DNA from: Pseudomonadota bacterium
GTDB taxonomy: Bacteria > Desulfobacterota > Desulfobacteria > Desulfobacterales > RPRI01
NCBI GenBank assembly: GCA_043825875.1
Contig: JBDRRF010000109.1
Span: 1-64,000, forward strand
Length of the DNA stretch: 64,000 nucleotides
Reading direction: 5' to 3'
Each line of letters begins with the position of its first letter. Positions within the stretch are counted from its first letter, which is position 1. This document shows positions 5,323 to 23,446 of the stretch, piece by piece. The translations under genes were made by a program, and so were the position numbers. The notes beneath the pieces are model-generated. The model ran no database searches. It was given only the letters and a program-made list of their open reading frames with translations, and was not told where the DNA came from.

Positions 5323-5355
5323 TCATTTATTGTAAATAGTATTGTTATAAATAAT

Positions 5356-5664: not shown

Positions 5665-7401
5665 TTACCAGTTAAAAACCTGATCCAGCTCTTCATCTTT
5701 AACTATAAAAGTTGTATTGTGGGGCGGAAGCGTTTCGTTTTTGAAGAATTCGGGAAGCCTGTCATGCTTTGGAGTAAAACCGGCTTTTATGTTAAATTCT
5801 CTTTCATTTTTTAATATGGATTTTCCAAGATCAATAAAATCTTCTTTTGTCATATCAAGGCCTGTAAAACTATTAATAAGATCTAAAAAGGTTTGGAAAT
5901 TTTCCGGTTTGCTTAAAATTGCATAATTTATAAATAAACACATTCCTGTTGAGTCAAGCGCAGCAGTTGCTATCTGCAATATTCTTGAAAGCTCTATCAG
6001 GCAATCATTTTTTTTCGAGTCAATTTTAATTCCCAAGCCTGAAAGATTCGTTAAACGGGCATTTCCGGCTGTATGATCTGCTCCCATAGGACTTGTTGCA
6101 TAAGTAACGCCCATACCCTGAATAGCACGTGGATCATAGGCTGACAATGACTGGCCCTTTACGACAGGGACTCTTTCCACACCAAATACTTTGCCGGTCA
6201 CGGCAGCACCGTTTCCGAGAATGCGGCCAAGAGGAGTTCCTTTTCCAACTTCTTTAACCAGATTTATCGCAGCATCAGCGTCTCCGAATTTTGCAATCCC
6301 TGCATCCATTGCAACCGCAATCGCTGCTCCTATTTCTATGGTATCAAGCCCGAAATCATCATCTAAGCGGTCAAGCATAGCTATTGTATCAAGATCGTCT
6401 ATACCGCAGTTTGCACCATGAGCCCACACAGTTTCATATTCCGGTTGTTTCGTCAGGTAATTACCGTCTTTGTCGTTAAAAATTCCTGAGCACCTGATAA
6501 CACATCCCCTGTGACAACCAAGAGTGACAACACCTCCACGGGCTCTTTCCGTTTCCACCAGTGTTTCGCCACTTATTTTTGAAACGCCGGTAAACTTACC
6601 CATTTTGAAATTGTTTGTAGGTAATCCTCCTGATTCATTCATTACATTCATTAATGCATTGGTTCCTAAAGCAGGAAGACCCTTTCCGGTAACGGGATTA
6701 TTTTTAAGAGCCTGACCAAAATTTTTATTTGCTTCTTTGAATTTTTCAGGATTTTTCGGACTTCTGTTTGGCATGTCGGTATCATCTAACACAATAACTT
6801 TTACACCTTTTGCTCCCATTACGGCTCCGGTGCCGCCACGCCCTGCATGGCGGGTCGGCCTTAATTCCATATCCGTAAAGGCAATAGAGGCCGCAGACAT
6901 TTTCATTTCTCCGGCAGGGCCAATCGATATGCAGCAGATCTTATCCCCGAATTCTTTTTTCATCCTGTTTATGAGATCGTAATTGCCAAGCATTTCAAGA
7001 CTGCTGTCGGCAATTATTTTTACCCCGTCTTTATTGATGGTAATTTTATAAAGAGTATCGTCTTTAGGCTTTCCCTCAAGAACAATAGCCGCATAACCAA
7101 GTCTTGCCAAAACCTGGGCGGGTTGTCCTCCGGCATTTGACTCTTTTATGCCTCCGGTTAGTGGGCTTTTACAGCCTACTGAAATGCGGCCCGACATGGC
7201 GGCAAGTGATCCGCTCAAAAGGCCTGGAGCAATTACAAGCTTATTATCAGTGCCAAGAGGGTGGCTTAGTGGAGGGACTTCTTTTGACACTATAGCGGAA
7301 GTCATGGCTCTTCCTCCAAGACCTGCGTAATCGCCAAGAGGATTAATTACAACAGAAGGGCCTTTTTCTTCTCCCATATTGATTCTTAATATCTTGTCCA
7401 T
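5665..7401 (-). CDS. aor: aldehyde:ferredoxin oxidoreductase family (W/Mo) protein, AOR-2
   Basis: KSPLTGGIKESNAGG, HAGRGGTGAVMG, PEYET, DTIE and GADH motifs. Likely start is MDKILRIN at 7401 (GGGAG RBS); the longer ORF-track start runs through a repeat. Confidence 0.9.
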   Translation of the reverse strand: MDKILRINMGEEKGPSVVINPLGDYAGLGGRAMTSAIVSKEVPPLSHPLGTDNKLVIAPGLLSGSLAAMSGRISVGCKSPLTGGIKESNAGGQPAQVLARLGYAAIVLEGKPKDDTLYKITINKDGVKIIADSSLEMLGNYDLINRMKKEFGDKICCISIGPAGEMKMSAASIAFTDMELRPTRHAGRGGTGAVMGAKGVKVIVLDDTDMPNRSPKNPEKFKEANKNFGQALKNNPVTGKGLPALGTNALMNVMNESGGLPTNNFKMGKFTGVSKISGETLVETERARGGVVTLGCHRGCVIRCSGIFNDKDGNYLTKQPEYETVWAHGANCGIDDLDTIAMLDRLDDDFGLDTIEIGAAIAVAMDAGIAKFGDADAAINLVKEVGKGTPLGRILGNGAAVTGKVFGVERVPVVKGQSLSAYDPRAIQGMGVTYATSPMGADHTAGNARLTNLSGLGIKIDSKKNDCLIELSRILQIATAALDSTGMCLFINYAILSKPENFQTFLDLINSFTGLDMTKEDFIDLGKSILKNEREFNIKAGFTPKHDRLPEFFKNETLPPHNTTFIVKDEELDQVFNW

Positions 7402-7462
7402 AATATGACTCCCATCATTGTTGGGTTTAACAATTTGGATCTTCACCAAATGATTTGGGGAA

Positions 7463-7600
7463 AAGGGGCCCAGGATTCGAGGGTTCAAGGATTCAAGTGG
7501 TTGCTTTTTGCTGTTGTCTTGTGTCCATTAAACATAGCTGATAGGGTTGTTTCCGGGCCTTGTACTAGAATCCTGGAATCCCTGGCCCCTTGAACCCTTA
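7463..7600. repeat. inverted pair of degenerate 8-bp tandem repeats
   Basis: GGATTCGA-GGGTTCAA-GGATTCAA on the left and TAGAATCC-TGGAATCC-CTGGCCCC-TTGAACCC on the right. Confidence 0.7.
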
Positions 7601-7610
7601 CCATTATTAT

Positions 7611-8459
7611 TTATAAAACAAGACCTGTATAAAAGATGTCCGGAACGGAGGTATCGGTCAGGGAAGGGCTTGGTGTATCCAAAAGTATTTTATCGTTAAT
7701 ATTTAAGCCCAGTTTCATACTCAAATCTTTAAGATAAGAAGAACTTTTCGGTAATTGTACTCTTACTATCATATCAAATTCTTCTTCTTTTGTTTGGTCG
7801 TTTTCATTAAATGTAACTAAAAGATTATTTGTTTCTTCATTTTCCTTTAGTTCTTTTATCTCGCCTTCCACAATAGTAATGCCACCTGTTATTTCATTTT
7901 CATGAGCCTTGATTATTTTTTCCTTATCCGAAACAAAGATGGATACAGCTAAATCCTCAACCTTTTGAAGAGCTAATACAGCCTCACAAACGGCATAGGA
8001 AGCAAGATAATTATTATCACCATTTATAATAAAAGCGATTTTTTGCGGAATCTCTCCATCAAATGGGCGCATAACTAGTCCACCTGTAGGACCATTTAAT
8101 GAGAGCATGCTTTCAAATTGAAAAGCATTTATAACATTAATATATTCATTTACCATTGGAGTAGAACTTACCATTTCGGGTGCGATAATGATCTCATCAA
8201 TCGATAATTCAACAAAGTCATCTTCTTCTTCAAAAACTATCGCTTTGGGTTGGCATACCGCCAGGCAGAGTCCGCATCCTAAGCACCTGCGGCAGCTAAG
8301 ACACCTTTTTGCTTCTTCTTTTGCTTTTTCAGTCCTAAAACCCAACTCAACTTCTTCAAAATTGCTTATACGATCTTTGACTTCCAGTTCAGGCATATGC
8401 TGCCTTTTACAAGGAATGTCATTAAAGTCTATTATATATCTTTGCTGTATTTCTCCCAT
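7611..8459 (-). CDS. GltD C-terminal tail/4Fe-4S segment fused to a degenerate HdrA-like domain
   Basis: FEEVELG...EEAKRCLSCRRCLGCGLCLAVC matches the middle of the 1496-aa paralog; the HdrA part lacks the QCVGSR/CSxxCC cysteines. Confidence 0.7.
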   Translation of the reverse strand: MGEIQQRYIIDFNDIPCKRQHMPELEVKDRISNFEEVELGFRTEKAKEEAKRCLSCRRCLGCGLCLAVCQPKAIVFEEEDDFVELSIDEIIIAPEMVSSTPMVNEYINVINAFQFESMLSLNGPTGGLVMRPFDGEIPQKIAFIINGDNNYLASYAVCEAVLALQKVEDLAVSIFVSDKEKIIKAHENEITGGITIVEGEIKELKENEETNNLLVTFNENDQTKEEEFDMIVRVQLPKSSSYLKDLSMKLGLNINDKILLDTPSPSLTDTSVPDIFYTGLVL

Positions 8460-8476
8460 GGTATTACTATTTTCCT

Positions 8477-10138
8477 TTAAGATATTCGTCTCAGATATTC
8501 GTCTATGGATAAAGCCGCTTTTTTCCCTGCCGCAACCGCTTCAATTGCAATATTCGGCCCGGTAACACAATCACCACCGGCAAAGATTCCCTGCCTGTTG
8601 GTGCAACACTGTCGGGAATCGGCAACAATGGTTCCCCATTTAGTCGTTTCCACGGTGTCATTTTCAGGCAGAAACGAAAGGTCGGATTTTTGTCCTATAG
8701 CAGGGATTATCATATCAAGCTCAATATCAAATTCCGATCCTTCTATGGTTACGGGTCTTCTTCTTCCTGATGCATCGGGCTCGCCCAGTTGCATGCGAAT
8801 GCATTTTAAGCCGGCAACCTTCCCATTATCTATAAGTACTTGTTGAGGTGCTACCAGATATTCAAATTTAATGCCTTCGGCTAAGGCAGCATCAATCTCT
8901 TCTCCACTTGCCGGCATCTCTTCTCTTGATCTTCTATAAAGGATTGATACTTCCTTTGCTCCAAAACGAAGAGAAGATCGGGCTGAATCCATAGCAACAT
9001 TTCCGCCGCCGATAACTGCGACTTTTTTACCTAACTGCACTTCTTTCCCAAGATTAAGGTCGCGAAGATATGTGACACCGGAAACAACACCTGTTGTATC
9101 TTCACCGTCAATTCTTAAATTCTGGCCCTTATGTGCTCCAACTGCAATAAAAACAGATTCAAAACCCTGATTAAAAAGATCATCAACCGACATGTCCTTT
9201 CCTATGCGAATGCCGGTCTTTATTTGGGCTCCGAGTTTTGTAACAATATCTATCTCTTTGTTTAAAAGATCTCTGGGCAAGCGGTATTTCGGAATGCCTA
9301 CTGCGAGCATTCCACCGGCAACCGGAAGTTCCTCGAATATCACGACCTCATAACCCATTACAGCAAGATCATGAGCACAGGCAAGCCCAGCAGGTCCGGC
9401 ACCGATTATGGCTACTTTTTTACCATTGGGTTTAGCTTTTTGTATGATTTCATCATAACCATCTTCGATTTCAGCGTCGGCTACAAATCGTTTCAGATCA
9501 CGAATGCAAAGAGGGGCATCCTTATTTGCGCGGTTGCATTTTTCCTCACAGGGATGGGGGCATATTCTTCCTATCGTAGCTGGAAAAGGCAGTTTTTCGC
9601 GTATTAAATTTAAAGCTTCTTTATACTTGCCATCTGCTATCAAACCCACATACCCCCGAACATCAAGATGAACCGGGCAGGTTTCTTCGCATATGGGCCT
9701 TTCTTTTATAATACCGTAAGATTTTGTTTCCGAATTAAAATAATCGACAGCAGTTCTTAAGCCAAGCCCGTTGGAATAATCATCACGTAAGTTAACCGGA
9801 CAAACTTTTATGCATTCCTTGCAGTCATTGCACTTGTCTTCCAATACCCGCAAAGCCGTTTTCTTAATTTTTATCTTAAAACTTCCATTTTCTTTCCGGG
9901 CATCTTCTATAACTCCATTGGATATAATATGGATATTCGGATGTTTTTTTGCTTCCTCCCATTTGGAAGAGACAAAAGGAGTTTTATGTTTTAAATAATC
10001 AACCGGGAATAATTTTTCTCCGCTTAATCCCGGTGCACTTTCAACAAGATAGACAAGTTTACCTTCTTCAGCCATATCAAGAGCAGACTGAATACCGGAT
10101 AGACTGCTTCCAATAACGAGTACCTTTTTCCCTTCCAC
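8477..10138 (-). CDS. HdrA N-terminal fragment + ferredoxin + GltD/NfnB-like NAD(P)H flavoprotein
   Basis: CEETCPVHLDV, GRICPHPCE, GAGPAG, GGGNVAMD, YRRS and FAGGD motifs; GTG start. Confidence 0.85.
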   Translation of the reverse strand: MEGKKVLVIGSSLSGIQSALDMAEEGKLVYLVESAPGLSGEKLFPVDYLKHKTPFVSSKWEEAKKHPNIHIISNGVIEDARKENGSFKIKIKKTALRVLEDKCNDCKECIKVCPVNLRDDYSNGLGLRTAVDYFNSETKSYGIIKERPICEETCPVHLDVRGYVGLIADGKYKEALNLIREKLPFPATIGRICPHPCEEKCNRANKDAPLCIRDLKRFVADAEIEDGYDEIIQKAKPNGKKVAIIGAGPAGLACAHDLAVMGYEVVIFEELPVAGGMLAVGIPKYRLPRDLLNKEIDIVTKLGAQIKTGIRIGKDMSVDDLFNQGFESVFIAVGAHKGQNLRIDGEDTTGVVSGVTYLRDLNLGKEVQLGKKVAVIGGGNVAMDSARSSLRFGAKEVSILYRRSREEMPASGEEIDAALAEGIKFEYLVAPQQVLIDNGKVAGLKCIRMQLGEPDASGRRRPVTIEGSEFDIELDMIIPAIGQKSDLSFLPENDTVETTKWGTIVADSRQCCTNRQGIFAGGDCVTGPNIAIEAVAAGKKAALSIDEYLRRIS

Positions 10139-10166
10139 TACTTTACTTCCTTTTTAAGTTTCATGC

Positions 10167-10931
10167 TTATTGTAGCGCATAAAGGGGAGACCTGCCCCTT
10201 ATTTCAGCGATTTTAATAATCTCTTTTCTTCGTAAACCAAGCATCTGTTCCATTATCTTAGGAGAAGATATCCCAAGTCGTTGAGAAATTTCTTTAACAG
10301 ATAATTTTTCCTGTTCTAAAAGCAATAAAATCTGCTGAAGAGCAATTTCCTCAATAACGACACCATCTACCATTCTTTTGAGTTCTTGATCGGTAAATAC
10401 TTCGCCATATTTGTTTCCATCTTTTCTGAATTCTGTCTGTTTGGCTGCAACCCATCTTAACTTCTCACTGCTAACTGCATTTTTAGCGGCTTTAAGTTTA
10501 AGCGACAAATTTCCATTATTGTTTTTCGCATCTTCGTCTAAAGGCCCCAGTTCTCTTAATTGATTGGTAAAATCGGTTACCAGTTGAGCAAAACGTGGGC
10601 CCTCTGCGGCAGATACCCATTCAAGCAGAAGTCTGTTCGGATTTATTCCAATATGGCTTATGATACTTTTTGCTACATCCACCATATTGATTGCTTCTTC
10701 ATTACCAGACTGGTAATGGCATTCTCCGAGATGTCAGCCGCCGACCCAGATACCGTCACAACCGACAAGAAAGCCCTCAATTATAAATTCCGGGTCTACT
10801 CTTCCGGTGCACATAACCCTGACCACTTTCATATTGGGAGGATATTGAATTCGGGAAACTCCTGCCAGATCACCTCCGGCATAAGCACACCAGTTACATA
10901 AAATACCGAGAATCTTCGGTTCAAAACTCAT
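10167..10931 (-). CDS. mvhD: selenocysteine-containing MvhD/BamF-like 2Fe-2S protein with C-terminal HTH-like extension (254 aa)
   Basis: ORFs 10734-10931 and 10167-10685 are in frame across UGA (10734-10736): WVGG-U-HLGECHY aligns with LVSG-C-HPGDCHY of paralog 15539-15985. Confidence 0.92.
10700..10718 (-). promoter_or_regulatory. bacterial SECIS-like hairpin (mvhD)
   Basis: mRNA CAUUACCA-GUC-UGGUAAUG, a perfect 8-bp stem starting 16 nt after the UGA; the loop starts with G. Confidence 0.75.
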
Positions 10932-10943
10932 ATATAAACCTCT

Positions 10944-13900
10944 CTACGCATCACTCGTTGCTAAAGAAAACGCATCAATCTGAGCGATGATCTGTTCATT
11001 TGTAAATCTTCCCATAGTGATTGCCTGTCTGGGACACTTGGAAGCACAAATACCACAACCCTTACAGGATGCTGAAATACTTTGAGCCTTATCTTCACCT
11101 TCAACAGATGTCACCTTGATTGAACCATAAGGACATAAATATTCACATATTCCGCAGCCAAAGCATTTTTTGGAATCAACAATACTTACAACAGGCTCAA
11201 CCATTACATAGCCCCTGGTTAACGGGATTGCCGCACGGGCTGCCGCTGCCTGAGCCTGAGCAATAGTCTCGTCTATAGGCTTGGGAGAGTGAGCAAGGCC
11301 TGCTACAAAAATTCCATCGGTCGGAAAATCAACCGGACGAAGCTTGACATGGGCTTCCAGGAAAAAGCCTTCGACATTTAAAGGAACTTTTAGTAATTTC
11401 GAAATACTTTCATTGTCTCCCGGAACAACTCCCGCACTTAAAGCCAGGAGGGAAGGAGAGATTAAGATATTTTCTCCTAATATAGGATCAAAAACCTCAA
11501 CTCTTAATTCGCCGTTTTCTTCTTTTACAACCGGCAAAGTGTCGTCATCATATCTGATAAAGATTATACCTTCGTTTCTGGCCTTTCGATAATACTCTTC
11601 GCGGAAACCATATGCCCTGATGTCTTTATAGAGTATATAAACATTGGCATTGGGCTTTATCGACTTTATTTTCAGGGCGTTTTTTATTGCCTGACTACAG
11701 CATATCTTACTGCAATAAGGCCTTTCCTTGGTCCTTGAACCAACGCATTGAATCATTACTACATCTTTAAGTTCATCAGAAATAAAATTTCTTGAGGCCA
11801 GTTTTTCTTCCAGGCTGTGCTGTGTGATTACTCTTTCATCCTCACCATACAAATATTCTTTTGGTTCGTATTCATGGGCTCCGGTAGCCACGATAATTAC
11901 ACCGTGAGAAACTGTTTTTTCTTCTTTACCGGCAGAAAACCTGGTTATAAAATTGCCGATATAACCTGTTACTTCCTTTATATCCGCTTCGGTAAAAACT
12001 TTTATCTTTGAATGGCTTGTAACTTTTTCAATGGTATCTCTTAACAGTTTCTGGGGGTCATTATCACTTAAAGTATAGAAGATTCCCTGCAGATTGCCGC
12101 CAAGCGTTTTGTTTTTTTCCAGCAATACGCAATCCAATCCCTGGTCGGCCAGAGAAAGTGCCGCCGTCATTCCTGACAATCCTCCTCCGATTACCAGAGC
12201 CTTTGGTGTTACAGGGACAGACTCTTCTTTTAAAGGAGATAACAGCCTTGCTTTAGCTACTCCCATCCTTAACAAATCCATGGCTTTTTCAGTTGCCAAA
12301 CGGGGTTCATTGGCATGTACCCAGGAACAATGGTCACGGATATTGGCCATTTCAAAAAGGCAGCGGTTCAATCCGGCCTCTCTTATGGTCTCCTGGAAAA
12401 GAGGCTCATGAGTACGTGGAGTGCAGGCCGCCACTACCACCCGGTTTAAATTTTGTTCTTTTATTATCTGTTTTATTTTATCCTGGTTGTCCTTGGAACA
12501 GGCATACATGGATTGCTCGGCATATACTACATCCGGCAAAGTCTCTACATATTCCCTTATTTTTGTTACATCGGCAACCCCTGCTATATTGACTCCGCAG
12601 TGGCAGACAAAAACCCCTATGCGCGGGTCTTCTCCGGCTAAATCAGTTTCGGCAATACATTCTTTTTCCTCAACCAGCGTGCCCCTGACTTCAGATAAAA
12701 GCCCTGAAGCCAATGCAACCGATCCGCTCGCCTGGATAACGCTTTCCGGGATATCCTTGGGTGACTGAAATGCGCCGGCAACAAAGATCCCTTCCCGGTT
12801 GGTGTTTATGGGAGAAAACTCATTGGTTTGACAGAAACCTTCATTATTAAGCTTAACGCCTAATGTATCGGCTAATTCTTTTGCTGTTCTTGAAGGCTCA
12901 AGTCCAACAGATAAAACGGCCATATCAAATTCTTCTGTGTGATGTTTACCGTCTTCTGTAACAAACTTAAACAAGAGGTTTTCAGACTCATGTATTCTTT
13001 CCATTGAGGCCAGACGGCTTCTTACAAATTTAATGCCGAATTTGGTTTTTGCTCTTTCATAGAAACTTTCAAAGCCTTTACCCTGGGTTCTTATATCCAT
13101 ATAAAATATGGTGATATCAACATCCGGATCATGTTCTTTGGCAACCATTGCTTCTTTAACGGCATAGGTACAACAAACGGAAGAACAATAGGAGTTTGTT
13201 TCAATATCCCGGCTTCCGACACACTGCAGGAAAGCAATTTTTTTCGGATGCTTTCTGTCAGACAGGCGCGTTATTTTACCAAGAAAAGGCCCGGATGCGG
13301 AAAGCATTCTTTCAAGTTCTATGCTTGTAACTACATTAGGATATTCACCATAGCCATATGCTTTTTTTCTTCTTGCATCAAATTCATCAAAACCAATGGC
13401 AAGAATAATTGAACCTACCTGTATATCAATATGTTCTTCCTGCTGGTTAAGCTTTATCGCCTTAAGATCCTTGCAGGCCTGCTCGCACTGGCGGCATTCA
13501 TTTTTTGTCTGAAAAAGGCAATATTTGGGATCTATCACATATGAAGCCGGAACCGCCTGCGGATAAGGAATATAAAGGCATTTGTTATTAACCAGTTTTT
13601 CATTATATGAATCAGGCATCTCTACCGGACAATAGCTAACACATGTACCGCAGGCAGTACATAAGTCTTCATCCACATATCGCGGTCTTTTAAGAACGGT
13701 TACATTATAATTTCCAGCCTGTCCTGTTAAAGCTTCAACTTTGGCGTTTGCTATAATTTTGATGTTGCTATATCTTCCAGACTCCACGAGTTTGGGAGAT
13801 AAAATTCACATAGCACAGTCAAGGGTAGGAAAGGTTTTATCAAGCTGAGCCATGGCTCCACCGATGGCCGGGCTGCTTTCAACCAAATAAACCATATAGC

Positions 13901-13997
13901 CCTGTTCAGCAAGATCAAGAGAAGCCTGGATACCGGTAATCCCTCCGCCCACTACCATAACAGCACCGATCTTTTCAATATTCGAACTCATAATCAT
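10944..13997 (-). CDS. hdrA: selenocysteine-containing heterodisulfide reductase subunit A-like (HdrA/BamE-type, ~1017 aa)
   Basis: ORFs 13806-13997 and 10944-13787 join in frame across UGA (13806-13808): DKTFPTLDCAM-U-ILSPKL vs DKTFPTNDCSM-C-ILSPKL in the paralog. Two QCVGSR...CS..CC modules and ferredoxin motifs. Confidence 0.93.
13771..13801 (-). promoter_or_regulatory. bacterial SECIS-like hairpin (hdrA)
   Basis: mRNA UAUCU-C-CCA-A-ACUC-GUG-GAGU-C-UGG-A-AGAUA just 3' of the UGA, with a GUG loop; not evident at the equivalent position of the Cys paralog. Confidence 0.7.
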
Positions 13998-14003
13998 TCT
14001 TCC

Positions 14004-14474
14004 TTAACATTTATCGGAAATTTGTTTCACTAACTCTTTTGGATCAATATTAAAGTCTTCTGATTTTCTTTTAACAATAGAGATAACCAGCTGATGTCGA
14101 AGATCCTGAGAAAACCTGTCAATATCATCCATATTTTTTAAAAAAGAAGGTTTGACATATCCTTCTTGTGCCGCCATTTCCCTTAAAACCCCCATAACTT
14201 TAACAAACTGTACGTTCTGGGGGCAATGAAAAGAACAATTATAACACATGGCGCAAAGCCATATAAGATCAGAGGAAAGTACTTTTTCCTTCATTCCCAG
14301 AAGCACCATGCGAATGATCTTTCGGGGATCATACGCCGGATCAACCTCAGATACCGGACAGCCGCCGGTGCAGGCTCCACAGGCAAAACATGCTGTGAGT
14401 CCGCTGCCACCCGGATGGGCCGCTACGTCAAACTTAAACTGAGAGTCAAGTTTATTGAGCTCTATTGCTTCCAC
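14004..14474 (-). CDS. hdrC: heterodisulfide reductase subunit C-like (2x4Fe-4S)
   Basis: CFACGACTGGCP, DPRKIIR and IWLCAMCYNCSFHCP motifs. Confidence 0.88.
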   Translation of the reverse strand: MEAIELNKLDSQFKFDVAAHPGGSGLTACFACGACTGGCPVSEVDPAYDPRKIIRMVLLGMKEKVLSSDLIWLCAMCYNCSFHCPQNVQFVKVMGVLREMAAQEGYVKPSFLKNMDDIDRFSQDLRHQLVISIVKRKSEDFNIDPKELVKQISDKC

Positions 14475-14555: not shown

Positions 14556-15509
14556 CTATTGTTTAATAAAATCATCAGTATCATCAGGCCTGAAAACTGA
14601 AAGCGGCGGAGGTTCATCAAGATTAATACCTGCCTCAAAGTCAAACAGTTCTCTTACATCCTTTTCAACTTTTTTGTTGAGAAACCTCAAGTCCACTTCC
14701 ATAGGGCAGGCCCGCACACAGGCCCCGCAGTCAACGCAGCGACCGGCTACATGAAATGCCCGCATAATATGAAACACTTGAGCATCAGAAAGAGCTACGG
14801 ATTTTCCGAACCATTGAGGTTGTGAGCTGTCTACACAGCATTCCTTACAGTAACAAAGCGGACAGGCATTACGGCAGGCATAGCACCTTATGCATTTGCC
14901 TATCTCTTTGGAAAAATAATCCCATCTTTCATCAGATGTCTTTGCTTCATCTTCTTTTGTTTTTTTAAATTCATCCGAGTCTTTGTTTTCTTCAACAGCT
15001 TCTCCGATTAAAACATCATACAAAACCGGGTTCCTATGGGAACAGGTAATACAGTTATCAGGTAAAAGTTCTTTCTTTGCTATCGTTTCCTCGAAATTAT
15101 CACCTTTGAAAATGATCTCATCCGGTTTTTCTTCAATAGCTGTGATTTCTCGACCGGCGATTACGTTGTCCACTGATTTCCGATCCAGCATTCCATGGCA
15201 GGGAACGCCGATTATTATCAGGTTTTCCCGCTCAATTTGTTTTTCCTTGATATGTCCGACCAGAGAACGACTGTCGCAGCCTTTTGCAATAATTCCGATC
15301 TTTCCCTTCATACCCGGAATATATGTAGCAAGGTTATTTTCACAACCGCTGTTCCAGATTAGTTTTTTTGCATCTTCGGCGTTTTTCACAAAACAAGGTG
15401 CAGACCTTAGCGGAAGAGTTCCTTTTTCATACCCTATTACAAGGTCAACTTTTTCTTCCTCAAATAACTTTCGAACAGCTTCTTTTATTTCTTTTAATAG
15501 TTGTTCCAT
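14556..15509 (-). CDS. FlxC/FdhB(FrhB)-like 4Fe-4S protein
   Basis: KGCDSR, GVPC, CIRCYACRNACPLCYC and RAFHVAGRCVDCGACVRACP motifs. Confidence 0.82.
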   Translation of the reverse strand: MEQLLKEIKEAVRKLFEEEKVDLVIGYEKGTLPLRSAPCFVKNAEDAKKLIWNSGCENNLATYIPGMKGKIGIIAKGCDSRSLVGHIKEKQIERENLIIIGVPCHGMLDRKSVDNVIAGREITAIEEKPDEIIFKGDNFEETIAKKELLPDNCITCSHRNPVLYDVLIGEAVEENKDSDEFKKTKEDEAKTSDERWDYFSKEIGKCIRCYACRNACPLCYCKECCVDSSQPQWFGKSVALSDAQVFHIMRAFHVAGRCVDCGACVRACPMEVDLRFLNKKVEKDVRELFDFEAGINLDEPPPLSVFRPDDTDDFIKQ

Positions 15510-15538
15510 CTATTCAATCCGATTCTTAACTACTATGT

Positions 15539-15985
15539 TTAACCTAAATTTTTAACCAGGCGTTTTGCCGGACCCAGTTTTTTTACATCTTCAGTTACCT
15601 CGGTAATAACTTCTGCAAACCGGCCTGCTTCGGCTGCCGAAACCCATGAGAATTGCACTCTTCCTTTTTCAATTCCGACATGTCCAAGAAGTCGACTCAA
15701 AACCGCAAACTTTCTCCGGGCTGAAAAATTGCCGCTCAGATAATGGCAATCTCCCGGATGGCAGCCAGAAACTAAGACTCCGTCAACCCCATGTTGCAAT
15801 GCCTTCAATATATAAAGAATATTGACTCTGCCCGAACAGGGAACCCGGATTGTACGAGTATTAGCAGGGTATTGAATACGACTTACGCCGGCAAGATCTG
15901 CTCCGGCATAACTGCACCAGTTACAAAGAAATGTTATTATTTTTGGTTCCCAATTTGATTCAGATGATTCTTTTCCTTCTTCCAT
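15539..15985 (-). CDS. mvhD: MvhD/FlxD 2Fe-2S subunit (Cys form)
   Basis: CNWCSYAGAD, RVPCSGRV, GCHPGDCHY and WVSAAE motifs. Confidence 0.92.
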   Translation of the reverse strand: MEEGKESSESNWEPKIITFLCNWCSYAGADLAGVSRIQYPANTRTIRVPCSGRVNILYILKALQHGVDGVLVSGCHPGDCHYLSGNFSARRKFAVLSRLLGHVGIEKGRVQFSWVSAAEAGRFAEVITEVTEDVKKLGPAKRLVKNLG

Positions 15986-15994
15986 CTCTTCTCC

Positions 15995-18900
15995 TTATAA
16001 GGAATCAATCATGCTTACTACTTGACTATTAGTAAATCCATACAGGTTGATCGCACCGGATTTACAGGAAGCCGAGCATATGCCACAGCCTTTGCACAAA
16101 GCATCATTAACCACAGCTATATGCTGTTGTTCATCAAGAGCTACCGCCCCGAAAGGACAGACATTTGTGCATTCTCCGCAACCGATACATTTATTTTTAT
16201 TAACAAAAGAAATAGCGCCCGGAAGTTGTACTATTTTTCTGGATAGCACCATACCTGCACGTGAAGCGGCTGCCTGGGCCTGAGCAATGCTTTCTTCTAT
16301 CAGTTTCGGATTGTGAGCAAGACCGCACATAAAAACGCCATCAGTGGCAAATTCGACCGGTCTAAGTTTCATATGTGCTTCAAGGAAGAACTTATCTTCA
16401 TTTAAAGGCACTTTAAAAAACTGCGAAAGCTCTTTGTTTGTGGAAGGCGGTGTAGTTGCAATAGCAAGTGCAAGAAGATCGGCATCGATTACTATCTGTT
16501 CTCCCAAAAGAGGATCTTTTACAGTGACTCTGAGGCCGTCTTTGCCATTTTCTTTAAAAGGAACTACTTCAGGTTTGGCGTCAGGTTCGTAATGAATAAA
16601 GAGTATGCCTTTTTCCCTTGCTTCGCGGTAGAAATCTTCCTTTAATCCGTAGGTTCTGATATCTCTATAAAGAATATATATATTTGCTTCCGGATTAGTG
16701 TTTTTTAATAAAATTGCGTTTTTAATTGCTTCGGAGCAACATACCCGGCTACAGTAAGGTCTTTCTTCATCCCGTGATCCTACACATTGTATCATAACCA
16801 GATTCTTGCAATCTTTGATTTTTTTGGATTGCTTTATAATCTCGGATTCAAGATCAAGCAAAGAAAGTACTTTGCTGTTTTTTTTGTAAAAGTATTCGTT
16901 GGTTTTTAGCTCCTCAGCACCTGTAGCTATAACTACGGCTCCATGCTTTATCTCTGTAATTTCCTTTTTCGGGCCAACTTTTATTTTTGTTACAAAGTTG
17001 CCTATATATCCGGAGCTTTCAGCAATGGAAGCCTTGGTATAAACATTAAGCAGGGGATGATTGTTAACCTTTTCTATCAATTCATTCAGGTAGGCCTGAA
17101 CATCGCCGCCTTCAAGGGTATAATGGATCTTTTTTGCCATACCGCCAAGTTTCATACCCTTTTCAACCAGACTGACGCTAAATCCCTGTTCTGCAAGATT
17201 AAGAGCGCTTACCATTCCGGCAATTCCGCCACCGACCACAAGTGCAGCAGGAACGGTCTCAAGAGAAATCATCTTCAGCGGTTCAAGGCCTCTTACTTTG
17301 GCTACAGCCATTCTGACCAGATCTTTAGCCTTATTAGTTGCTTCTTCCGGGTGTTGCTGATGGACCCAGCTGCATTGATCGCGGATGTTAGCCATTTCAA
17401 ACAGATATTTGTTCAAGCCCTGTTCCTGCATGGTCTCCTGGAAAAGCGGTTCATGTGTTCTTGGAGTACATGACGCAACTATTACCCGGTTAAGGCTGTG
17501 CTCTTGTATCTTTTCCTTTATAAGTTCCTGGGTATCTTGCGAACAGGTATAAAGATTCTCATCAACATAAATTACATTAGGCAATGATCTCGCATATTCC
17601 TTAACACCAGGGACATCAACCACGCCGCCAATATTGATGCCGCAATGGCAGACAAAAACGCCTATCCTGGGCGGTTCGCCGGTTATGTTAATTTCAGGAG
17701 GAAATTCCTTAATCTTGACGAGTTCTCCGCGGGATTCGGAAAGAAAAGCTGCTGATGCAGCGGCAGCGCCGCTTGCCTGCATAACAGTTTCAGGAATGTC
17801 TTTAGGTCCTTCAAATGCACCGCAAACATATATTCCGGGCTTGGAGGTGTTTACCGGCGTAAAATTATCTGTTTTGCAGAATTCATAGTGATCCAGATCT
17901 ATTCCCAGTCTTTTTGACATTTCAATTACAGCAGGTTTTGGTTTCATTCCAACAGAAAGAACAATCATATCAAATTCTTCAAATTTAAGATCACCTTCTT
18001 CTGTTACATACCTGAGCTCAAGATTTTCTGTATCTCCTATCTCCTGTATGCCATAGACCTTTGATTTTATAAAATTGATACCATGTTCATTCTTGGCCCG
18101 TTCATAGTATTTGTCAAAGCCTTTGCCATAACTTCTCATGTCCATATACATGATGCTTATGTCCAGAGGCTCAGGGCTGTGCTCTTTAGCAATAACAGCC
18201 TCTTTAATGGCATACATGCAGCAAACGGATGAGCAATAGCCGCTGTTGCATGTCACGTCCCTGGAACCTACACATTGAATCCATGCAATTTTATGAGGCG
18301 TTTTTAAGTCAGACGGCCTCGACAGATGACCTTTATAGGGTCCCGAAGCCGATAAAATTCTTTCAAATTCAATGCTTGTAACAACATTGGGATATTTGCC
18401 GTATCCATATTGAGAGATTAAACTTGTATACCCGCCAAATTTGGCAAGCTTATCGGCAGACGGATCAAAACAATCAAAACCGGGGCTTAAAATGATAGAA
18501 CCCACATTTATTTCAACTATCTCTTCGGTCATCTCATGGTTTACGGCTTCAGCTTTACAGGCGGCAACACATTGCATGCACTCAGAGCATATTCCGCAGT
18601 TTAAGCAGCGGTTTGCTTCATTTATTGCCTCTTCTTCAACATATCCAAGTTCTACTTCCTTAAAACCTTCTTTCCTGTTTTCTAATGGAAGTGCGGCCAT
18701 AGTCTGGCGGGGAGCTTTGGGCTTTGGCATAAGCGGACTGTCTTCGGCTTGAACTTTGCTTATTTCTTTTTCCCTGCCCGCTTTCATATCTTCTTTTTGC
18801 AAATATCTGTCAATTGATACGGCTGCTTTCTTGCCAGCAGCTACAGCTTCAATAGCTATCCAGGGCCCACTCACACAATCGCCACCTGCAAAAACCCCAT

Positions 18901-20485
18901 CCATATCGGTGGCAAGCGTCACAGGATCAGCAGCAACCTTTTTCCCGGATATTTGTACTCCACTGTTTTCTTCTATCATCGAAAGGTCGGAAGCCTGGCC
19001 TATAGCCGGAATAACCATATCAATTTCGATGTCAAATTCAGAGCCTTCAATTATCACAGGCCGTCTTCTGCCGCTGGCATCCGGACTGCCCAATTTCATT
19101 TTTTGGCAACGAAGGGTTGTGGCCCTGTTATTATCGGAAAGTATTTCAAGAGGTGCTGTAAGGAACTGAATATTGATTCCTTCCGAAATGGCACTTTCTA
19201 TTTCTTCAGGATTTGCGGGCATTTCTTTTCTGGAACGACGATATATTATAGATACTTCTGTTGCACCTATTCTTATAGCCGAGCGCGCAGCATCAATTGC
19301 AACATCACCTCCGCCGATAACTGCTACCCTTTTGCCTGTATCAACTTTATTTTTCAGGTTGACGTTTCTTAAAAAGTCTACTCCGGAAATCACCCCTTCA
19401 CAATCTTCTCCGACAATCCCCAGTGAAACGTTTTTATGACAACCGGTAGCAATAAATACTGCCTTATATCCTTTTTCCAAAAGCCCACTAATGGAATGAT
19501 CCTTGCCAATGGGTGAATTTGTTTTTATCTCAACGCCCATCTTTTCTATATATTTTATCTCTTTTTCAAGGACATCAGGAGGCAAGCGATAATCAGGAAT
19601 ACCAACTCTCAGCATTCCGCCAGCTACGGGCAGTGCTTCAAAAATGGTAACCTGGTATCCCTTAAGAGCAAGAAAATAAGCACAGGTCAGACCGGAAGGC
19701 CCTGATCCTATAATTGCCACCTTTTCTTCTTTTTTTTCAGAAACAAAAGGGATATCTATGTCTTCGCCAAGTTTATCGGCAAGGAACCTCTTTAAATTGC
19801 ATATTGCAATAGGTTCATCTATCATTCCTCTTTTGCAGGCCGACTCACAGGGATGAGGACATATTCTTCCGATTACTCCGGGAAGGGGCAGATTTTCTTT
19901 AATCAGATCAAGTGCTTCTTTGTATTTTCCCTGTGACAGTAGAGCAACATATCCCTGAACATTTATTCCGGCCGGACATGCGTCTCTACAGGGCGCCTTA
20001 GCAATTTTTTCAATCGTAAAAACATTCGGAACAGCCTGGGGATAAGGTCTGCTGACAGCCTTTCTTGACACCATACCTTCATCAAACTCACTGGGAAGTG
20101 ATACAGGACATACTTGCGTACACTCTCCGCAGCCAGTACATTTATCAGGATCAATATATACCGGGCGCCTTTTGATTTTTACCTTAAAATTTCCAGGATC
20201 ACCCTCTACGCTTTGAATTTCCGAACAGGTTAATATGTCGATATTTAGGTGTCTGCCACTTTCAACCAACTTGGGGGAGAGAATACACATGGAGCAATCA
20301 TTGGTTGGAAAAGTTTTATCCAATCGCGCCATTACTCCCCCGATTGCGGGAGTCTCTTCCGCCAGATAGACAAAATAACCTGATTCCGCTAGATCAAGGG
20401 AAGCCTGAATGCCGCCCACTCCACCACCAACAACCAAAACCGACCCAATTTTATGATTCTCTTCTTTCAATTCAATAGTATCCAT
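15995..20485 (-). CDS. hdrA: large HdrA (HdrL-type) with inserted GltD/NfnB-like NAD(P)H-binding domain
   Basis: DKTFPTNDCSMC; inserted CRDACPAG...GRICPHPCE...GSGPSG...GGGDVA...FAGGD block; two QCVGSRD modules; C-terminal ferredoxin. Confidence 0.92.
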   Translation of the reverse strand: MDTIELKEENHKIGSVLVVGGGVGGIQASLDLAESGYFVYLAEETPAIGGVMARLDKTFPTNDCSMCILSPKLVESGRHLNIDILTCSEIQSVEGDPGNFKVKIKRRPVYIDPDKCTGCGECTQVCPVSLPSEFDEGMVSRKAVSRPYPQAVPNVFTIEKIAKAPCRDACPAGINVQGYVALLSQGKYKEALDLIKENLPLPGVIGRICPHPCESACKRGMIDEPIAICNLKRFLADKLGEDIDIPFVSEKKEEKVAIIGSGPSGLTCAYFLALKGYQVTIFEALPVAGGMLRVGIPDYRLPPDVLEKEIKYIEKMGVEIKTNSPIGKDHSISGLLEKGYKAVFIATGCHKNVSLGIVGEDCEGVISGVDFLRNVNLKNKVDTGKRVAVIGGGDVAIDAARSAIRIGATEVSIIYRRSRKEMPANPEEIESAISEGINIQFLTAPLEILSDNNRATTLRCQKMKLGSPDASGRRRPVIIEGSEFDIEIDMVIPAIGQASDLSMIEENSGVQISGKKVAADPVTLATDMDGVFAGGDCVSGPWIAIEAVAAGKKAAVSIDRYLQKEDMKAGREKEISKVQAEDSPLMPKPKAPRQTMAALPLENRKEGFKEVELGYVEEEAINEANRCLNCGICSECMQCVAACKAEAVNHEMTEEIVEINVGSIILSPGFDCFDPSADKLAKFGGYTSLISQYGYGKYPNVVTSIEFERILSASGPYKGHLSRPSDLKTPHKIAWIQCVGSRDVTCNSGYCSSVCCMYAIKEAVIAKEHSPEPLDISIMYMDMRSYGKGFDKYYERAKNEHGINFIKSKVYGIQEIGDTENLELRYVTEEGDLKFEEFDMIVLSVGMKPKPAVIEMSKRLGIDLDHYEFCKTDNFTPVNTSKPGIYVCGAFEGPKDIPETVMQASGAAAASAAFLSESRGELVKIKEFPPEINITGEPPRIGVFVCHCGINIGGVVDVPGVKEYARSLPNVIYVDENLYTCSQDTQELIKEKIQEHSLNRVIVASCTPRTHEPLFQETMQEQGLNKYLFEMANIRDQCSWVHQQHPEEATNKAKDLVRMAVAKVRGLEPLKMISLETVPAALVVGGGIAGMVSALNLAEQGFSVSLVEKGMKLGGMAKKIHYTLEGGDVQAYLNELIEKVNNHPLLNVYTKASIAESSGYIGNFVTKIKVGPKKEITEIKHGAVVIATGAEELKTNEYFYKKNSKVLSLLDLESEIIKQSKKIKDCKNLVMIQCVGSRDEERPYCSRVCCSEAIKNAILLKNTNPEANIYILYRDIRTYGLKEDFYREAREKGILFIHYEPDAKPEVVPFKENGKDGLRVTVKDPLLGEQIVIDADLLALAIATTPPSTNKELSQFFKVPLNEDKFFLEAHMKLRPVEFATDGVFMCGLAHNPKLIEESIAQAQAAASRAGMVLSRKIVQLPGAISFVNKNKCIGCGECTNVCPFGAVALDEQQHIAVVNDALCKGCGICSASCKSGAINLYGFTNSQVVSMIDSL

Positions 20486-20799
20486 ATAATATTTTCCAGT
20501 CGGGCAGGAAATTATTCATAACCTTATTAATAACTAAGGTATTTTTAATAATTATAATCATGTTCCCCAACCCTCTAATACTAAAATTTAATCGGCAAGC
20601 TTTCTCACATTCCAAGCTGTGACCATCTCACATTATAAGAGTAGCAATTAAATATAATTTACAGCGTTTGTCAAAATAAATTTTTCTGTTCCCAGCAATA
20701 AAAAAAGCTTTTTTTATGTTATAACAATAAAAAAAGCTTTTTTTAATAGGTCAATGATCCTTCAAACAGAATGTATATATTACATACGTAATAACAAGA

Positions 20800-21186
20800 T
20801 CAAACCTCTACTATAGATAAAGCACCATGGTTACAAATTTGAACACAATGGGGATCTGCGGGCTCTCCGCAAAGATCGCATTTTAAAGCCACGCCCGTAT
20901 CAGGTTCTCTGAACCATGTCCTTCGGGGACAAGAAGCTCTACAGACTGCACATTCATCAAATTCTTTTCCGTCAATAATTACATCATACTTGCAGGTGCA
21001 TTCCGCCTCTGTAAAAGGCCCGGCTATTACAGGGAAGAATCGGTTGGCCTCTTCATCTATATACACCCTTATTCTTGATAATGCCGGGTTTACCAAGTTT
21101 TCATAGTGATTGGAAGAACATGCCGTCTCACAGTGCCGGCATCCTGTACATTTGCTATGATCAATTTTTATCCTGATCTTGTCCAT
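20800..21186 (-). CDS. BamC-like 4Fe-4S electron-transfer subunit
   Basis: IIDGKEFDECAVCRASCPRRTWFREPDTGVALKCDLC closely resembles, from memory, the IIDGKEYDECxFCRASCPSRDLFREPDSGLPLKCDLC signature of class II benzoyl-CoA reductase BamC; the BamC C-terminal tail is absent. Confidence 0.8.
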   Translation of the reverse strand: MDKIRIKIDHSKCTGCRHCETACSSNHYENLVNPALSRIRVYIDEEANRFFPVIAGPFTEAECTCKYDVIIDGKEFDECAVCRASCPRRTWFREPDTGVALKCDLCGEPADPHCVQICNHGALSIVEV

Positions 21187-21339
21187 TTGGTTCTCCTTTA
21201 TTCAGTTGAATTGCAAAATCCATAAAAAATCGGACTTATCGCGGATTTAAGCAAAAAACTCTTTTCTATCCTTATTAACTAAATTTTACAGCAATTACGC
21301 TGGAAACCAGTTGCCGTTAACCAAGCAAGCATAAATAAA

Positions 21340-21603
21340 TCAACCTCCGCCGGCTGGAGGAAATATACTGACTATATCACCTTCTTTTAAAACAAGGGCT
21401 TCATTTTCATCGGAAATGCCATGTGATACTCCGTTAAGTATAACAAGCTTAGGCAAATTTGCAGGAATATTCAAAATTTTTGAAATATCTCCAATTGTTG
21501 CACCTTGCCCCAAAGATATCTTTGCCTTACCTTCAGATGATCCTTCCGGCAGATATTGCTTGAAAGTCATGAACATTCTAAGTTCAATGTTAATATTATT
21601 CAT
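21340..21603 (-). CDS. moaD: MoaD/ThiS family sulfur carrier
   Basis: C-terminal LKEGDIVSIFPPAGGG; next to an AOR gene. Confidence 0.85.
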   Translation of the reverse strand: MNNINIELRMFMTFKQYLPEGSSEGKAKISLGQGATIGDISKILNIPANLPKLVILNGVSHGISDENEALVLKEGDIVSIFPPAGGG

Positions 21604-21634
21604 TTATATTATATACTTTTAGATATGCAAAAGC

Positions 21635-23446
21635 TTATTCAAGTCCAAGTTCCGACAATTTCTCCTGAGTAGGAAAGCCATTCTCCCAACCTCTTAGCTT
21701 ATAATACTCCGGCAGCATCTCATCTAACCTGCATACATCATTATTGGGTCCTGCGGGCTCTTCCAGCAGTCTTTTAGGAAGTGTATCATCCTCTTTTGTA
21801 AAACCTGCTTTCTGATTGAACTGACGCTCAATATTCCAAATTCTTTCTCCGGCTTGCACCAACTCTTCTACTGTATAGTTAAAACCTGTTGCACCGTTTA
21901 ACAGACCCTGAACTTCTTCATACAAAAAGCCGGGCGACAATGCTACAAACAGACATAAGCCTACGGAATCAATAATAGCAGTCAGGTTTTGAAAGGTTAT
22001 AACTAATTCGGCTTTTCCCTCGGTTATCAGAGGATCTACTGTACCATGTACACCAAGAATCTCGTTTGCCATTGTATAACCTCTGACATGACAAGCCCCG
22101 CGGTTGGAAGTAGCATATTGAAGACCCATACCCTGAACACCTCGCGGATCATAAGCAGGTGCTTCCAGTTTCTTAACGCCCATGAAGAGTTCCGGATGAC
22201 CGAATCTTTCAGCTAACCGGGCGCCGCCATCCGCCATAATAGCGCCGAAACCTTCTCCTCTACCCATCTTCTCCGTCATAACTACAAGGGCTTCCTTATT
22301 ACCAAAATTCAGCTTCATACCAGCTTCTTCTTCGGTAATATAACCTTTTTCGAAAAGTTCCATTGCTGTGGCTATTGTACCGCCAACTGAAATAGTATCC
22401 ATTCCCAGCTCGCCGCACAAATAACTTGCCTTGGCTATAGGAGCAAGATCGTCGATTCCACAGCTGGAGCCCATCAATATTACATTCTCAAACTCAGGTC
22501 CTTCACCCTCACCTTTGAACTCAGGATCTTCAATCTTAGTGCATTTTGCACAGGCTATAGAACAGGCAAAGCATCCTTTGTGTTTTGTTACTATGGTTTC
22601 AGCCATAGTTTCACCGCTTATCTTACCAGCTTTATCATAAAAAGAAACCTGCCAGTTATATGTGGGTAATATTTTGCACTCATTAACTATATTTACTAAT
22701 ACAGGGGTACCTAATGCAGGTAATGCCTCAGAAGTGACGGGGCCTGCATTTAATTTGTCCATAGCAGATTTAATTGCTGTATTAAAAGCTTCCCTGTCAG
22801 CTATTTTGATACCCTTTGTGCCTCTAACGGCTATAGCTTTCAACTTTTTCGAACCCATGACAGCCCCAACGCCTGTTCGTCCTGCCGCTCTGTTTCTGTT
22901 GCTTATAATACATGCAAGCTTTGACATATTTTCCCCTGCAGGACCGATGCAGGCTATCTGGGTCTCCCTGGCAACAAATTTATCTTCGATTTCTGCTTTT
23001 ATAAGATCATCTGTCTCGTGCGTTGTTTTGCCCCAAAGATCGATGGCCGACCGGATCTCAACATTATCATTGTCTATCCATAAATATACTGGTTCTTCAG
23101 AACAACCCTCAAAAATTATTCCGTCATAACCGGCTTGTTTCAGCTCAGGACCAAAAAAGCCGCCGCAATTGCTGCATGCTATGGTATTGGTTAAAGGTGC
23201 TTTGGTTATCACCATATACCTGGAAGCGGTAGGAGCGCCTGTTCCTGTTAAAGGGCCATTTAAAAATATTAATTTGTTTTCTGCATCCAGAGGATCAATT
23301 GCCGGATCTATTTCATCATATAATATTTTTGTTCCCAAGCCCCTTCCACCTATATACTGCCTCATCAAATCTGGATCTATGTCCTCAACCTCAAATTCGC
23401 CATCAGTTAAGTTGACTCTTAATATTTTACCTATGTAACCTTCCAT
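21635..23446 (-). CDS. aor: tungsten aldehyde:ferredoxin oxidoreductase (canonical AOR-like), AOR-1
   Basis: GKILRVNL, YIGGRGLG, AAGRTGVGAVMGSKKLKA, CFACSIAC, GPEFE, DTIS and NRGACH motifs. Confidence 0.92.
   Translation of the reverse strand: MEGYIGKILRVNLTDGEFEVEDIDPDLMRQYIGGRGLGTKILYDEIDPAIDPLDAENKLIFLNGPLTGTGAPTASRYMVITKAPLTNTIACSNCGGFFGPELKQAGYDGIIFEGCSEEPVYLWIDNDNVEIRSAIDLWGKTTHETDDLIKAEIEDKFVARETQIACIGPAGENMSKLACIISNRNRAAGRTGVGAVMGSKKLKAIAVRGTKGIKIADREAFNTAIKSAMDKLNAGPVTSEALPALGTPVLVNIVNECKILPTYNWQVSFYDKAGKISGETMAETIVTKHKGCFACSIACAKCTKIEDPEFKGEGEGPEFENVILMGSSCGIDDLAPIAKASYLCGELGMDTISVGGTIATAMELFEKGYITEEEAGMKLNFGNKEALVVMTEKMGRGEGFGAIMADGGARLAERFGHPELFMGVKKLEAPAYDPRGVQGMGLQYATSNRGACHVRGYTMANEILGVHGTVDPLITEGKAELVITFQNLTAIIDSVGLCLFVALSPGFLYEEVQGLLNGATGFNYTVEELVQAGERIWNIERQFNQKAGFTKEDDTLPKRLLEEPAGPNNDVCRLDEMLPEYYKLRGWENGFPTQEKLSELGLE

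Follow-up and report, generated by a model that had tools for sequence, protein, structure and literature searches.

A tail-less BamC relative and BamE-type HdrA beside a canonical tungsten aldehyde oxidoreductase in a Desulfobacterales genome: a candidate HdrA-coupled aldehyde enzyme

Background

The class II benzoyl-coenzyme A reductase (BCR) of Geobacter metallireducens, Bam[(BC)2DEFGHI]2, contains a tungsten subunit of the aldehyde oxidoreductase (AOR) family, BamB, and a three-cluster small subunit, BamC (10.64898/2026.04.10.717634; PDB 4Z3W). BamE is described there as a fused HdrA dimer: its bifurcating FAD has Lys280 beside it and its second FAD Gln768, Cys59 is paired with Cys62, and an inserted ferredoxin domain feeds BamC, while the winged helix of BamF binds BamI. 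Here we analyse the window, the first 64,000 nucleotides of contig JBDRRF010000109.1 from a Desulfobacterales bacterium (assembly GCA_043825875.1), and in particular a minus-strand locus (5665..23446) where a canonical AOR, named AOR-1, is encoded together with a relative of BamC and with HdrA, MvhD and GltD modules. The name BamC' is used below for the BamC type that has no C-terminal tail.

A further described system is the class IV tungsten-containing oxidoreductase (WOR) WorABCSL of Acetomicrobium mobile and Eubacterium limosum (PMC12318220, PMC13328260; PDB 9MQX), which includes the closest solved relative of AOR-1 and in which aldehyde oxidation is tied to a flavin-based coupling module. 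That module is of the Bfu/HydABC type and is combined with the WorS nanowire, whereas the locus studied here combines a module of the HdrA type with a three-cluster subunit of the BamC type; the WorABC Bfu module and WorS are absent from it. In the accessible part of the 2026 WOR classification, the bifurcating aldehyde enzymes are WorABC, with Bfu-type modules, and only BCR (clades 62/63) has Hdr subunits (PMC13328260). Loci for HdrL-MvhD and selenocysteine (Sec)-containing HdrA-MvhD were described in Desulfobacterium autotrophicum HRM2, HdrL being defined as an HdrA-glutamate synthase fusion followed by mvhD (PMC2702500). The window shares this fusion, the mvhD behind it and the Sec forms, but the part of that paper available to us proposes no BamC-type adaptor or AOR-Hdr complex. 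Our literature search, with reviews surveying HdrA gene contexts falling outside it, retrieved no account of an enzyme in which BamC-type and HdrA subunits accompany a canonical AOR. In Desulfovibrio, the FlxABCD-HdrABC system combines flxABCD with hdrABC; both there and in the window mvhD/flxD and flxC follow an hdrA gene, and relatives of the window keep the full flxDCBA run, whereas the locus of the window is without flxA, flxB and hdrB and has AOR and BamC' attached.

An earlier note on this DNA, made from the sequence alone, had proposed a Bam-like electron-transfer chassis on an aldehyde/carboxylate tungsten enzyme. The non-BamB AOR, the BamC relative and a recurring HdrA could all be substantiated; the Hdr-Mvh part did not prove to be Bam-specific. 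We put at about one in two the probability that the locus encodes a BCR II-like HdrA complex in which the AOR occupies the low-potential arm and a GltD domain serves as the port for NADP(H). Judged by sequence, the recurring gene block follows the BCR II architecture in a variant form, its head being of the aldehyde type, and is not a BCR.

Results and discussion

AOR-1 is a canonical aldehyde oxidoreductase and not BamB

AOR-1 (21635..23446; 603 amino acids; PF02730 and PF01314), the predicted catalytic head, is a large subunit of the canonical tungsten type. Its closest solved relative is WorL of WorABCSL (9mqx_D, 679 bits), followed by the Pyrococcus AOR (1aor_A, 641 bits), whereas BamB scores lowest (4z3w_A, 223 bits); the true BamB of a congener reaches 1271 bits against the same structure. 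The GPEFE and RGACH motifs on which the earlier note relied are found in AOR-1, and the cluster cysteines C292, C295, C299 and C498 are kept. The second-shell residues Thr243, Glu313, Tyr427 and His448, named for AORs in a 2025 review (PMC12096430), have their equivalents in T247, E320, Y432 and H453; the position of Y312 holds a Phe.

BamB itself is described in that review with Cys322 as tungsten ligand and a zinc site formed by E251, H255, E257 and H260 (PMC12096430). Neither the Cys322 motif nor the zinc-site motif was found in any of the 12 AOR-family proteins of the host genome (4.77 Mb, 99.8% complete); on six BamB rows, the Cys motif matched five and the zinc motif three. By tblastn, the best match of BamB in this genome is at 31%, BamQ has no match and the best match of BamA is at 31%. 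AOR-1 also lies outside the BamB clade in trees, so that the claim that it is not BamB is now backed by phylogeny and by active-site residues, and no bamB elsewhere in the genome is available as partner of BamC'. All 49 BamC'-linked AORs fall into one clade (SH-like support 93), joined there by a single control from a WorS-AOR-NuoEFG arrangement, while the other 39 AOR controls and BamB fall outside it (FastTree, built without reference sequences).

These data bear on two alternatives. That this is an ordinary class II BCR locus might be thought from its BamC-like, BamE-like and BamF-like genes and from the label 'benzoyl-CoA reductase subunit BamC' which the Joint Genome Institute (JGI) gives to some BamC' proteins, but at the sequence level it is refuted by the lack of a Cys322/Zn motif in the 12 AOR-family proteins and by the BamB, BamQ and BamA searches, and we hold it to be very improbable; the host genome has no benzoyl-CoA pathway. 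Improbable as well is a BCR II-like complex whose low-potential substrate is neither a simple aldehyde nor a simple acid. A Phe or His in place of Y312 in some members of the clade, site residues that vary more than in controls and the 12 AOR-family genes of the host would fit such a complex, but AOR-1 keeps the equivalents of T243, E313, Y427 and H448, as characterised AORs do.

BamC' belongs to the three-cluster branch of small subunits

BamC' (20800..21186; 128 amino acids) has 12 invariant cysteines, the three-cluster type. Its best PDB match is BamC (4z3w_E, E 8e-36), versus E values of at least 3.5e-14 for the four-cluster WorS types. In a tree from a quick search over 127 columns, the three-cluster proteins make up one branch (119 rows; Shimodaira-Hasegawa-like approximate likelihood ratio test, SH-aLRT, 100) set off from the four-cluster proteins; within this branch, true BamC makes up a subclade that does not include the BamC' of the window. 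The C-terminal tail of 41-51 amino acids, present in 31 of the 34 BamB-linked copies, is absent from the window BamC', and 56 of 67 AOR-linked BamC-type copies have a tail of at most 6 residues. A profile search retrieved 768 proteins at E <= 1e-30, and nearly all of the 120 best-scoring ones are 120-143 amino acids long; two of these 120 come from Dehalococcoidia. An AlphaFold model of BamC' as a single chain was of unusable quality (mean predicted local distance difference test score, pLDDT, 47).

Between aor-1 and bamC' lies a gene for a MoaD/ThiS-like sulfur carrier (21340..21603; 87 amino acids, C-terminal GG; PF02597, E 1.6e-4), which is found at the same position in relatives and likely serves cofactor maturation in a WorX-like manner. 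The host also has a second tail-less BamC', placed after a different WOR-clade gene among dehydrogenase genes (L013:4792-7227, on contig C11; L061 is a further such case); neither has Hdr genes in its vicinity.

The AOR-BamC'-HdrA block recurs across families and orders

A synteny search found AOR, BamC' and HdrA together in other families and orders, so the blocks do co-occur elsewhere, which the earlier note had left to be settled. The gene order aor-(moaD)-bamC'-hdrL-flxDC(BA)-hdrC-hdrA recurs outside the genus at locus L118 and at L343, the latter from another order. Of 26 genome loci, 22 scored as AOR+BamC', 17 of these with an HdrA within 10 kb; two Hdr-free MoaD-BamC' loci (L059 and L097) had been missed by the distance rule, which brings the count to 17/24. 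Among 79 metagenome loci, 38 have AOR+BamC' and 23 of these an HdrA; where at least 4 kb of downstream sequence is available the proportion is 20 of 23, one locus being a duplicate of that in congener G011. If only loci with an intact AOR are counted, 14 of 23 have an HdrA within 10 kb, although one of these shows just the C-terminal half where its contig begins, and the remaining nine consist of three with an HdrD-like gene before the contig end, three with none and three that are too short. The controls, i.e. the 40 top-scoring AOR1-like genes without BamC', picked by rank and available flank, have an HdrA within about 9 kb in four cases, two of them on the same strand. In the sample from other orders, for which 31 of 401 genomes matched and 20 of the 43 non-self matches were examined, BamC' stands behind a non-BamB AOR-family gene at all 20 loci, with HdrA at 14 of them and at 10 of the 12 that have an intact AOR. 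The gap between bamC' and hdrA is as short as 2-47 bp in several loci, mostly ones with degenerate AORs. Around the fixed AOR-BamC'-HdrA core, the input modules (FlxAB, NuoEFG, GltD, MvhAG, Fdh) and the exit modules (HdrC, HdrC-GltD, HdrD/BamD) vary.

The HdrA sequences themselves were compared in an unrooted IQ-TREE of 29 hand-picked tandem HdrAs. The Sec-HdrA of the window groups at 100/100 with six HdrAs from AOR+BamC' loci, which directly follow BamC' at their own loci, while five of six BamC-free HdrAs stand apart at 85/98. Six BamE rows group at 100/99 with six other AOR+BamC'-linked HdrAs and with one HdrA linked to a further WOR clade; in this tree, Sec-HdrA is not a BamE orthologue. 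The tree favours Sec-HdrA as the partner of BamC' and suggests an ancestry shared with the BCR II chassis, the order of events not being fixed by it.

Both results have to be set against the possibility that the genes are merely clustered by pathway, in which case AOR-BamC' would be a small, class II-like enzyme linked to ferredoxin, and its neighbours HdrL-Flx and HdrA-MvhD-GltD would be independent complexes for redox balance. The AOR-BamC' half and the Hdr half each occur alone, an internal promoter before hdrL is possible, and in D. autotrophicum an aor gene (Aor5) is listed among hdr neighbours (legend of Fig. 4, PMC2702500). Yet the Hdr link tracks BamC' and not AOR itself (4/40 controls), and Sec-HdrA groups with BamC'-adjacent HdrAs and not with BamC-free ones, which makes clustering alone rather unlikely.

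Within the genus, the locus was found in 3 of 16 congeners; nine others carry a long BamC, which adjoins BamB in both of the two that were checked. Across the host and G001-G016, long BamC (nine genomes) and the AOR-BamC' locus (host plus three) do not co-occur, and four genomes have neither; this exclusion may reflect kinship or incompleteness.

Several related arrangements were seen beside the block as it stands in the window. A large subclade of BamC'-linked AORs (L099:10325-12145, L100-L110, L112, L115, L342, L344 and related metagenome loci) has no equivalents of E313, R76 and R182 and keeps all four cluster cysteines; its AOR gene lies between a gene for a 521-amino-acid glutamate-synthase-like FMN-domain protein (PF01645) and those for Sec-HdrA, MvhD and HdrC, and the loci further carry NuoEFG-like genes or an HdrC-GltD fusion. 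Such an AOR may be a cofactor-less protein that serves as an electron terminal. In the closest twins of BCR II (L130:8095-18089, L144, L352, L359), an intact AOR and BamC' are joined by a complete BamD-like gene (51-56% to BamD) and by a tandem HdrA of the Cys form which groups with BamE; most of them also have the flxDCBA run. At L113:7683-13547 and L114:6439-12317, BamC and a tandem HdrA accompany members of a third WOR clade, which is the sister group of BamB (36-38% identity) and has a KCHLW motif near the Cys322 position; no bamD was seen there, and these loci possibly encode a BCR-like enzyme for another substrate. At L157-L161, L171, L357 and L361, two degenerate AOR-BamC' pairs are interleaved with HdrA, HdrCB-like and pyruvate:ferredoxin oxidoreductase-like genes.

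Hdr, MvhD, Flx and GltD modules of the locus

Sec-HdrA (10944..13997; 1017 amino acids) is a tandem HdrA of the BamE type. Its in-frame TGA (13808-13806) codes for residue 64 at a Cys-equivalent position (C61-x-x-U64), and together with K281 in TrxR1 and Q769 in TrxR2 this pair matches C59/C62, K280 and Q768 of BamE. Sec-MvhD (10167..10931; 254 amino acids; PF02662) has a BamF-like C-terminal extension, in which residues 199-228 give a weak winged-helix match (PF21476) below the cut-off of that model. Each of the two Sec genes has one in-frame TGA, found in relatives too; that of Sec-MvhD (10736-10734, residue 66) is likewise at a Cys-equivalent position. The earlier note had likened Sec-MvhD to BamF in its Sec, which does not hold since U66 aligns with Cys67 of methanogen MvhD and not with Sec19 of BamF, which adjoins the [2Fe-2S] cluster and the position of which would correspond to Cys15 in a CNWC motif. 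HdrC (14004..14474; 156 amino acids; TIGR03290, E 8e-27) is the only counterpart of the HdrBC fusion BamD, which is absent from the locus.

The 1496-amino-acid product of 15995..20485, matched by HdrA and GltD models, is an HdrA-GltD fusion followed by mvhD and is therefore an HdrL. It is a tandem HdrA in its Cys form (C63-x-x-C66, CCMYAIK, GGGDVA and YRR motifs), with a GltD-type NADP(H) module sitting within the inserted ferredoxin domain. Behind it come MvhD/FlxD (15539..15985; 148 amino acids; PF02662, E 2e-53) and a FlxC-like iron-sulfur protein (14556..15509; 317 amino acids; FrhB_C and Fer4). At L118 and L343, genes matching the AsrA/HydB and AsrB/HydG models are kept at the same place; we take these to be flxB- and flxA-like, and the name FlxC in the window is likewise our assignment.

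At the other end, split A (8477..10138; 553 amino acids) comprises a degenerate HdrA N-terminal part, half a ferredoxin and a GltD/StnC-like NADP(H) module (GGGNVA and YRR; best PDB matches 9bov_A, NfnA 9n5u_A and 8oh5_C), and split B (7611..8459; 282 amino acids) the second half of the ferredoxin and a degenerate HdrA core without CVGSR or CC..A.K motifs. The GxGxxA and YRR motifs of the GltD inserts in HdrL and split A are presumably of the NADP(H) type. A frameshift between split A and split B was considered and rejected, split B being conserved elsewhere as a stand-alone frame of 250-300 amino acids; the pair is a two-gene unit in 14 outside genomes out of 351 searched, preceded by a long MvhD in 10 of the 13 examined. 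The GltD/StnC-like domains are the sole NAD(P)H ports in the locus, where NuoEFG-like genes corresponding to BamGHI are missing; on both counts the earlier note was right. Its view of the Hdr-Mvh selenoproteins as Bam-like was overstated, because Hdr, MvhD and GltD are generic, multi-copy Desulfobacterota modules, and in D. autotrophicum both HdrL and Sec-HdrA/MvhD are described (PMC2702500).

Compared with class II BCR, the two systems thus have in common an AOR-family tungsten subunit with a three-cluster small subunit, a tandem HdrA with the Lys/Gln flavin pattern and a CxxC/U pair, and a long MvhD with a winged helix. The window differs in its canonical AOR in place of BamB, in the tail-less small subunit, in the HdrC alone that replaces BamD and the GltD modules that replace BamGHI, and in having Sec in HdrA and at a different position of MvhD.

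The GltD insert of HdrL opens a further alternative, namely one complex without energy coupling, in which aldehyde electrons would pass through BamC' and the inserted ferredoxin domain to ferredoxin or to the GltD of HdrL, as in a plain aldehyde:NADP+ oxidoreductase. In the genus as well as in L118 and L343, the gene immediately behind bamC' is hdrL, and the ferredoxin domain that houses its GltD module is the one that binds BamC in BCR II. In most other loci, however, the BamC'-adjacent HdrA has no GltD insert, and the bifurcation Lys at the flavin N5, a sequence hallmark, is kept in both HdrL and Sec-HdrA; we regard this alternative as unlikely.

Gene layout, spacer repeat and host genome

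The locus comprises 12 open reading frames (ORFs), or 11 with the split pair counted once, and every gene listed in the earlier note is present in its order on the minus strand. From hdrL through split B the intergenic gaps are 6-81 bp; wider ones are found between moaD and bamC' (153 bp), bamC' and hdrL (314 bp) and split B and AOR-2 (209 bp).

AOR-2 (5665..7401; 578 amino acids from its most likely start, the ATG at 7401) closes the run as had been noted, but outside the conserved core. It belongs to another AOR-family clade, with 33-35% identity to AOR-1, a separate tree branch and intact second-shell residues, and it follows split B in the host, G008 and G011 and neither in G016 nor in 13 outside genomes; AOR-2 is a local add-on. 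On the plus strand, fadB/fadA-like beta-oxidation genes (window 1670-5322) converge on AOR-2, with a terminator-like hairpin in between (5356-5384); they were not seen after AOR-2 in G008. Divergent from aor-1 is a flavin reductase-rubredoxin fusion (23750-24442, plus strand), which has the same place in all four locus-bearing congeners. In congener G016, hdrL is broken into two frames (L058:5447-6643 and 2070-5471), by assembly error or decay.

The bamC'-hdrL spacer (20486..20799) contains the decayed right arm of an inverted repeat resembling a miniature inverted-repeat transposable element (MITE), which within the genus is about 100 bp long, with arms of 31-32 nt in three relatives. This right arm carries a TTGACA that is conserved in four species, and its motif occurs at 10 places in the host genome. 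A reading of TTGACA as a dedicated hdrL promoter was rejected because the hexamer is part of an inverted-repeat arm that recurs across the genome. The spacer gave no call of a consensus promoter or terminator; promoter and terminator scans were at or near shuffle level (40 vs 44.9 and 20 vs 17.8). The repeat was also seen at window 5323-5664 and around 35430, and at nine other genome sites.

The host genome has ORFs which we take to be aprAB and qmo, and for this reason the host is regarded as a sulfate reducer. It further contains selA, selB and a tRNA-Sec, a TupA-like tungstate-binding gene (identified by motif) and several further Hdr-MvhD clusters; its sole clear hdrB lies on contig C82, adjoining its own short HdrC-like ORF. 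A search of the genome for iron-dependent alcohol dehydrogenases (Fe-ADH) gave none, the many short-chain dehydrogenases lying outside that search, and no NAD-linked aldehyde dehydrogenase was found in it besides one ProA-like gene. A CoA-acylating aldehyde dehydrogenase, as a route for ATP-free acid activation, was also considered and dismissed: the single PF00171 match adjoins proB-like and nadD-like genes and reads as ProA.

Proposed electron path and its weak points

If the BCR II structure is taken as template, electrons of AOR-1 would run via BamC' to the inserted ferredoxin domain of Sec-HdrA. The extended Sec-MvhD would dock split A/B as BamF docks BamI, with the GltD domain as NADP(H) port, and the Lys281 flavin of Sec-HdrA would couple this port, at mid potential, with two arms, that of AOR and a high-potential one through HdrC, for which HdrB/D in trans, the HdrL-MvhD-FlxC unit and DsrC are candidate final partners. 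The reaction should be reversible. The acid/aldehyde couple lies at about -580 mV, NADPH at about -370 mV and protein disulfide at about -150 mV; the two arms would average close to NADPH, i.e. near equilibrium in either direction. Of the two directions we slightly favour aldehyde oxidation by confurcation (aldehyde plus high-potential donor giving acid and 2 NADPH) over acid reduction driven by NADPH, since neither an Fe-ADH nor an NAD-linked aldehyde dehydrogenase that would use the aldehydes turned up in the genome.

A number of points weigh against this BCR II-like complex. bamC' and Sec-hdrA are 6.8 kb apart, with the TTGACA-bearing repeat before hdrL, and that repeat could be an internal promoter or inert. 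hdrB and flxAB are absent, so that neither Hdr unit is complete in cis. The Hdr, MvhD and GltD genes are multi-copy mobile modules in the host, and 13 of the 14 outside split pairs, those examined, have no AOR within flanks of 3.5-20 kb. Conversely, AOR-MoaD-BamC' occurs without Hdr nearby at L097, L059, L119 and L141, and the second BamC' of the host (C11) has no Hdr nearby either. The inserted-ferredoxin loop common to Sec-HdrA and BamE had to be rejected as a docking signature, as BamC-free HdrAs share it. The loci are kin and the counts overstate their independence, with about five Hdr-positive intact-AOR lineages in the first set. Finally, 26 of the 49 BamC'-linked AORs are without E313 and/or R76/R182, the latter two presumably binding the pterin; they look catalytically degenerate, and much of the raw AOR-BamC'-Hdr synteny therefore probably concerns inactive heads.

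Conclusions

The AOR, BamC' and Sec-HdrA scaffold is likely an energy-coupling enzyme for aldehydes or acids and not for aromatic rings. Tentatively, and with more doubt than belief, AOR-BamC'-HdrA may be seen as a widespread HdrA-coupled tungsten family that gave rise to BCR II when the catalytic head was exchanged, which would reduce acids with NADPH or use aldehydes to lift high-potential electrons to NADPH without ATP or free ferredoxin, and half of whose members would use the AOR as a cofactor-less iron-sulfur terminal for another enzyme.

If true, an HdrA-coupled aldehyde enzyme would be a second route to energy-coupled acid/aldehyde chemistry. It would bear on the proposal (PMC6895022) that energy-limited anaerobes activate acetate without ATP via AOR, acid reduction having been unmeasurable there. 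It would also provide a simpler system in which to follow electrons through HdrA, a selenyl-sulfide at the CxxU site included, and would show the origin of the BCR II chassis. In metagenomes, annotations as 'bamC' or 'bamE' are no evidence for aromatic ring reduction.

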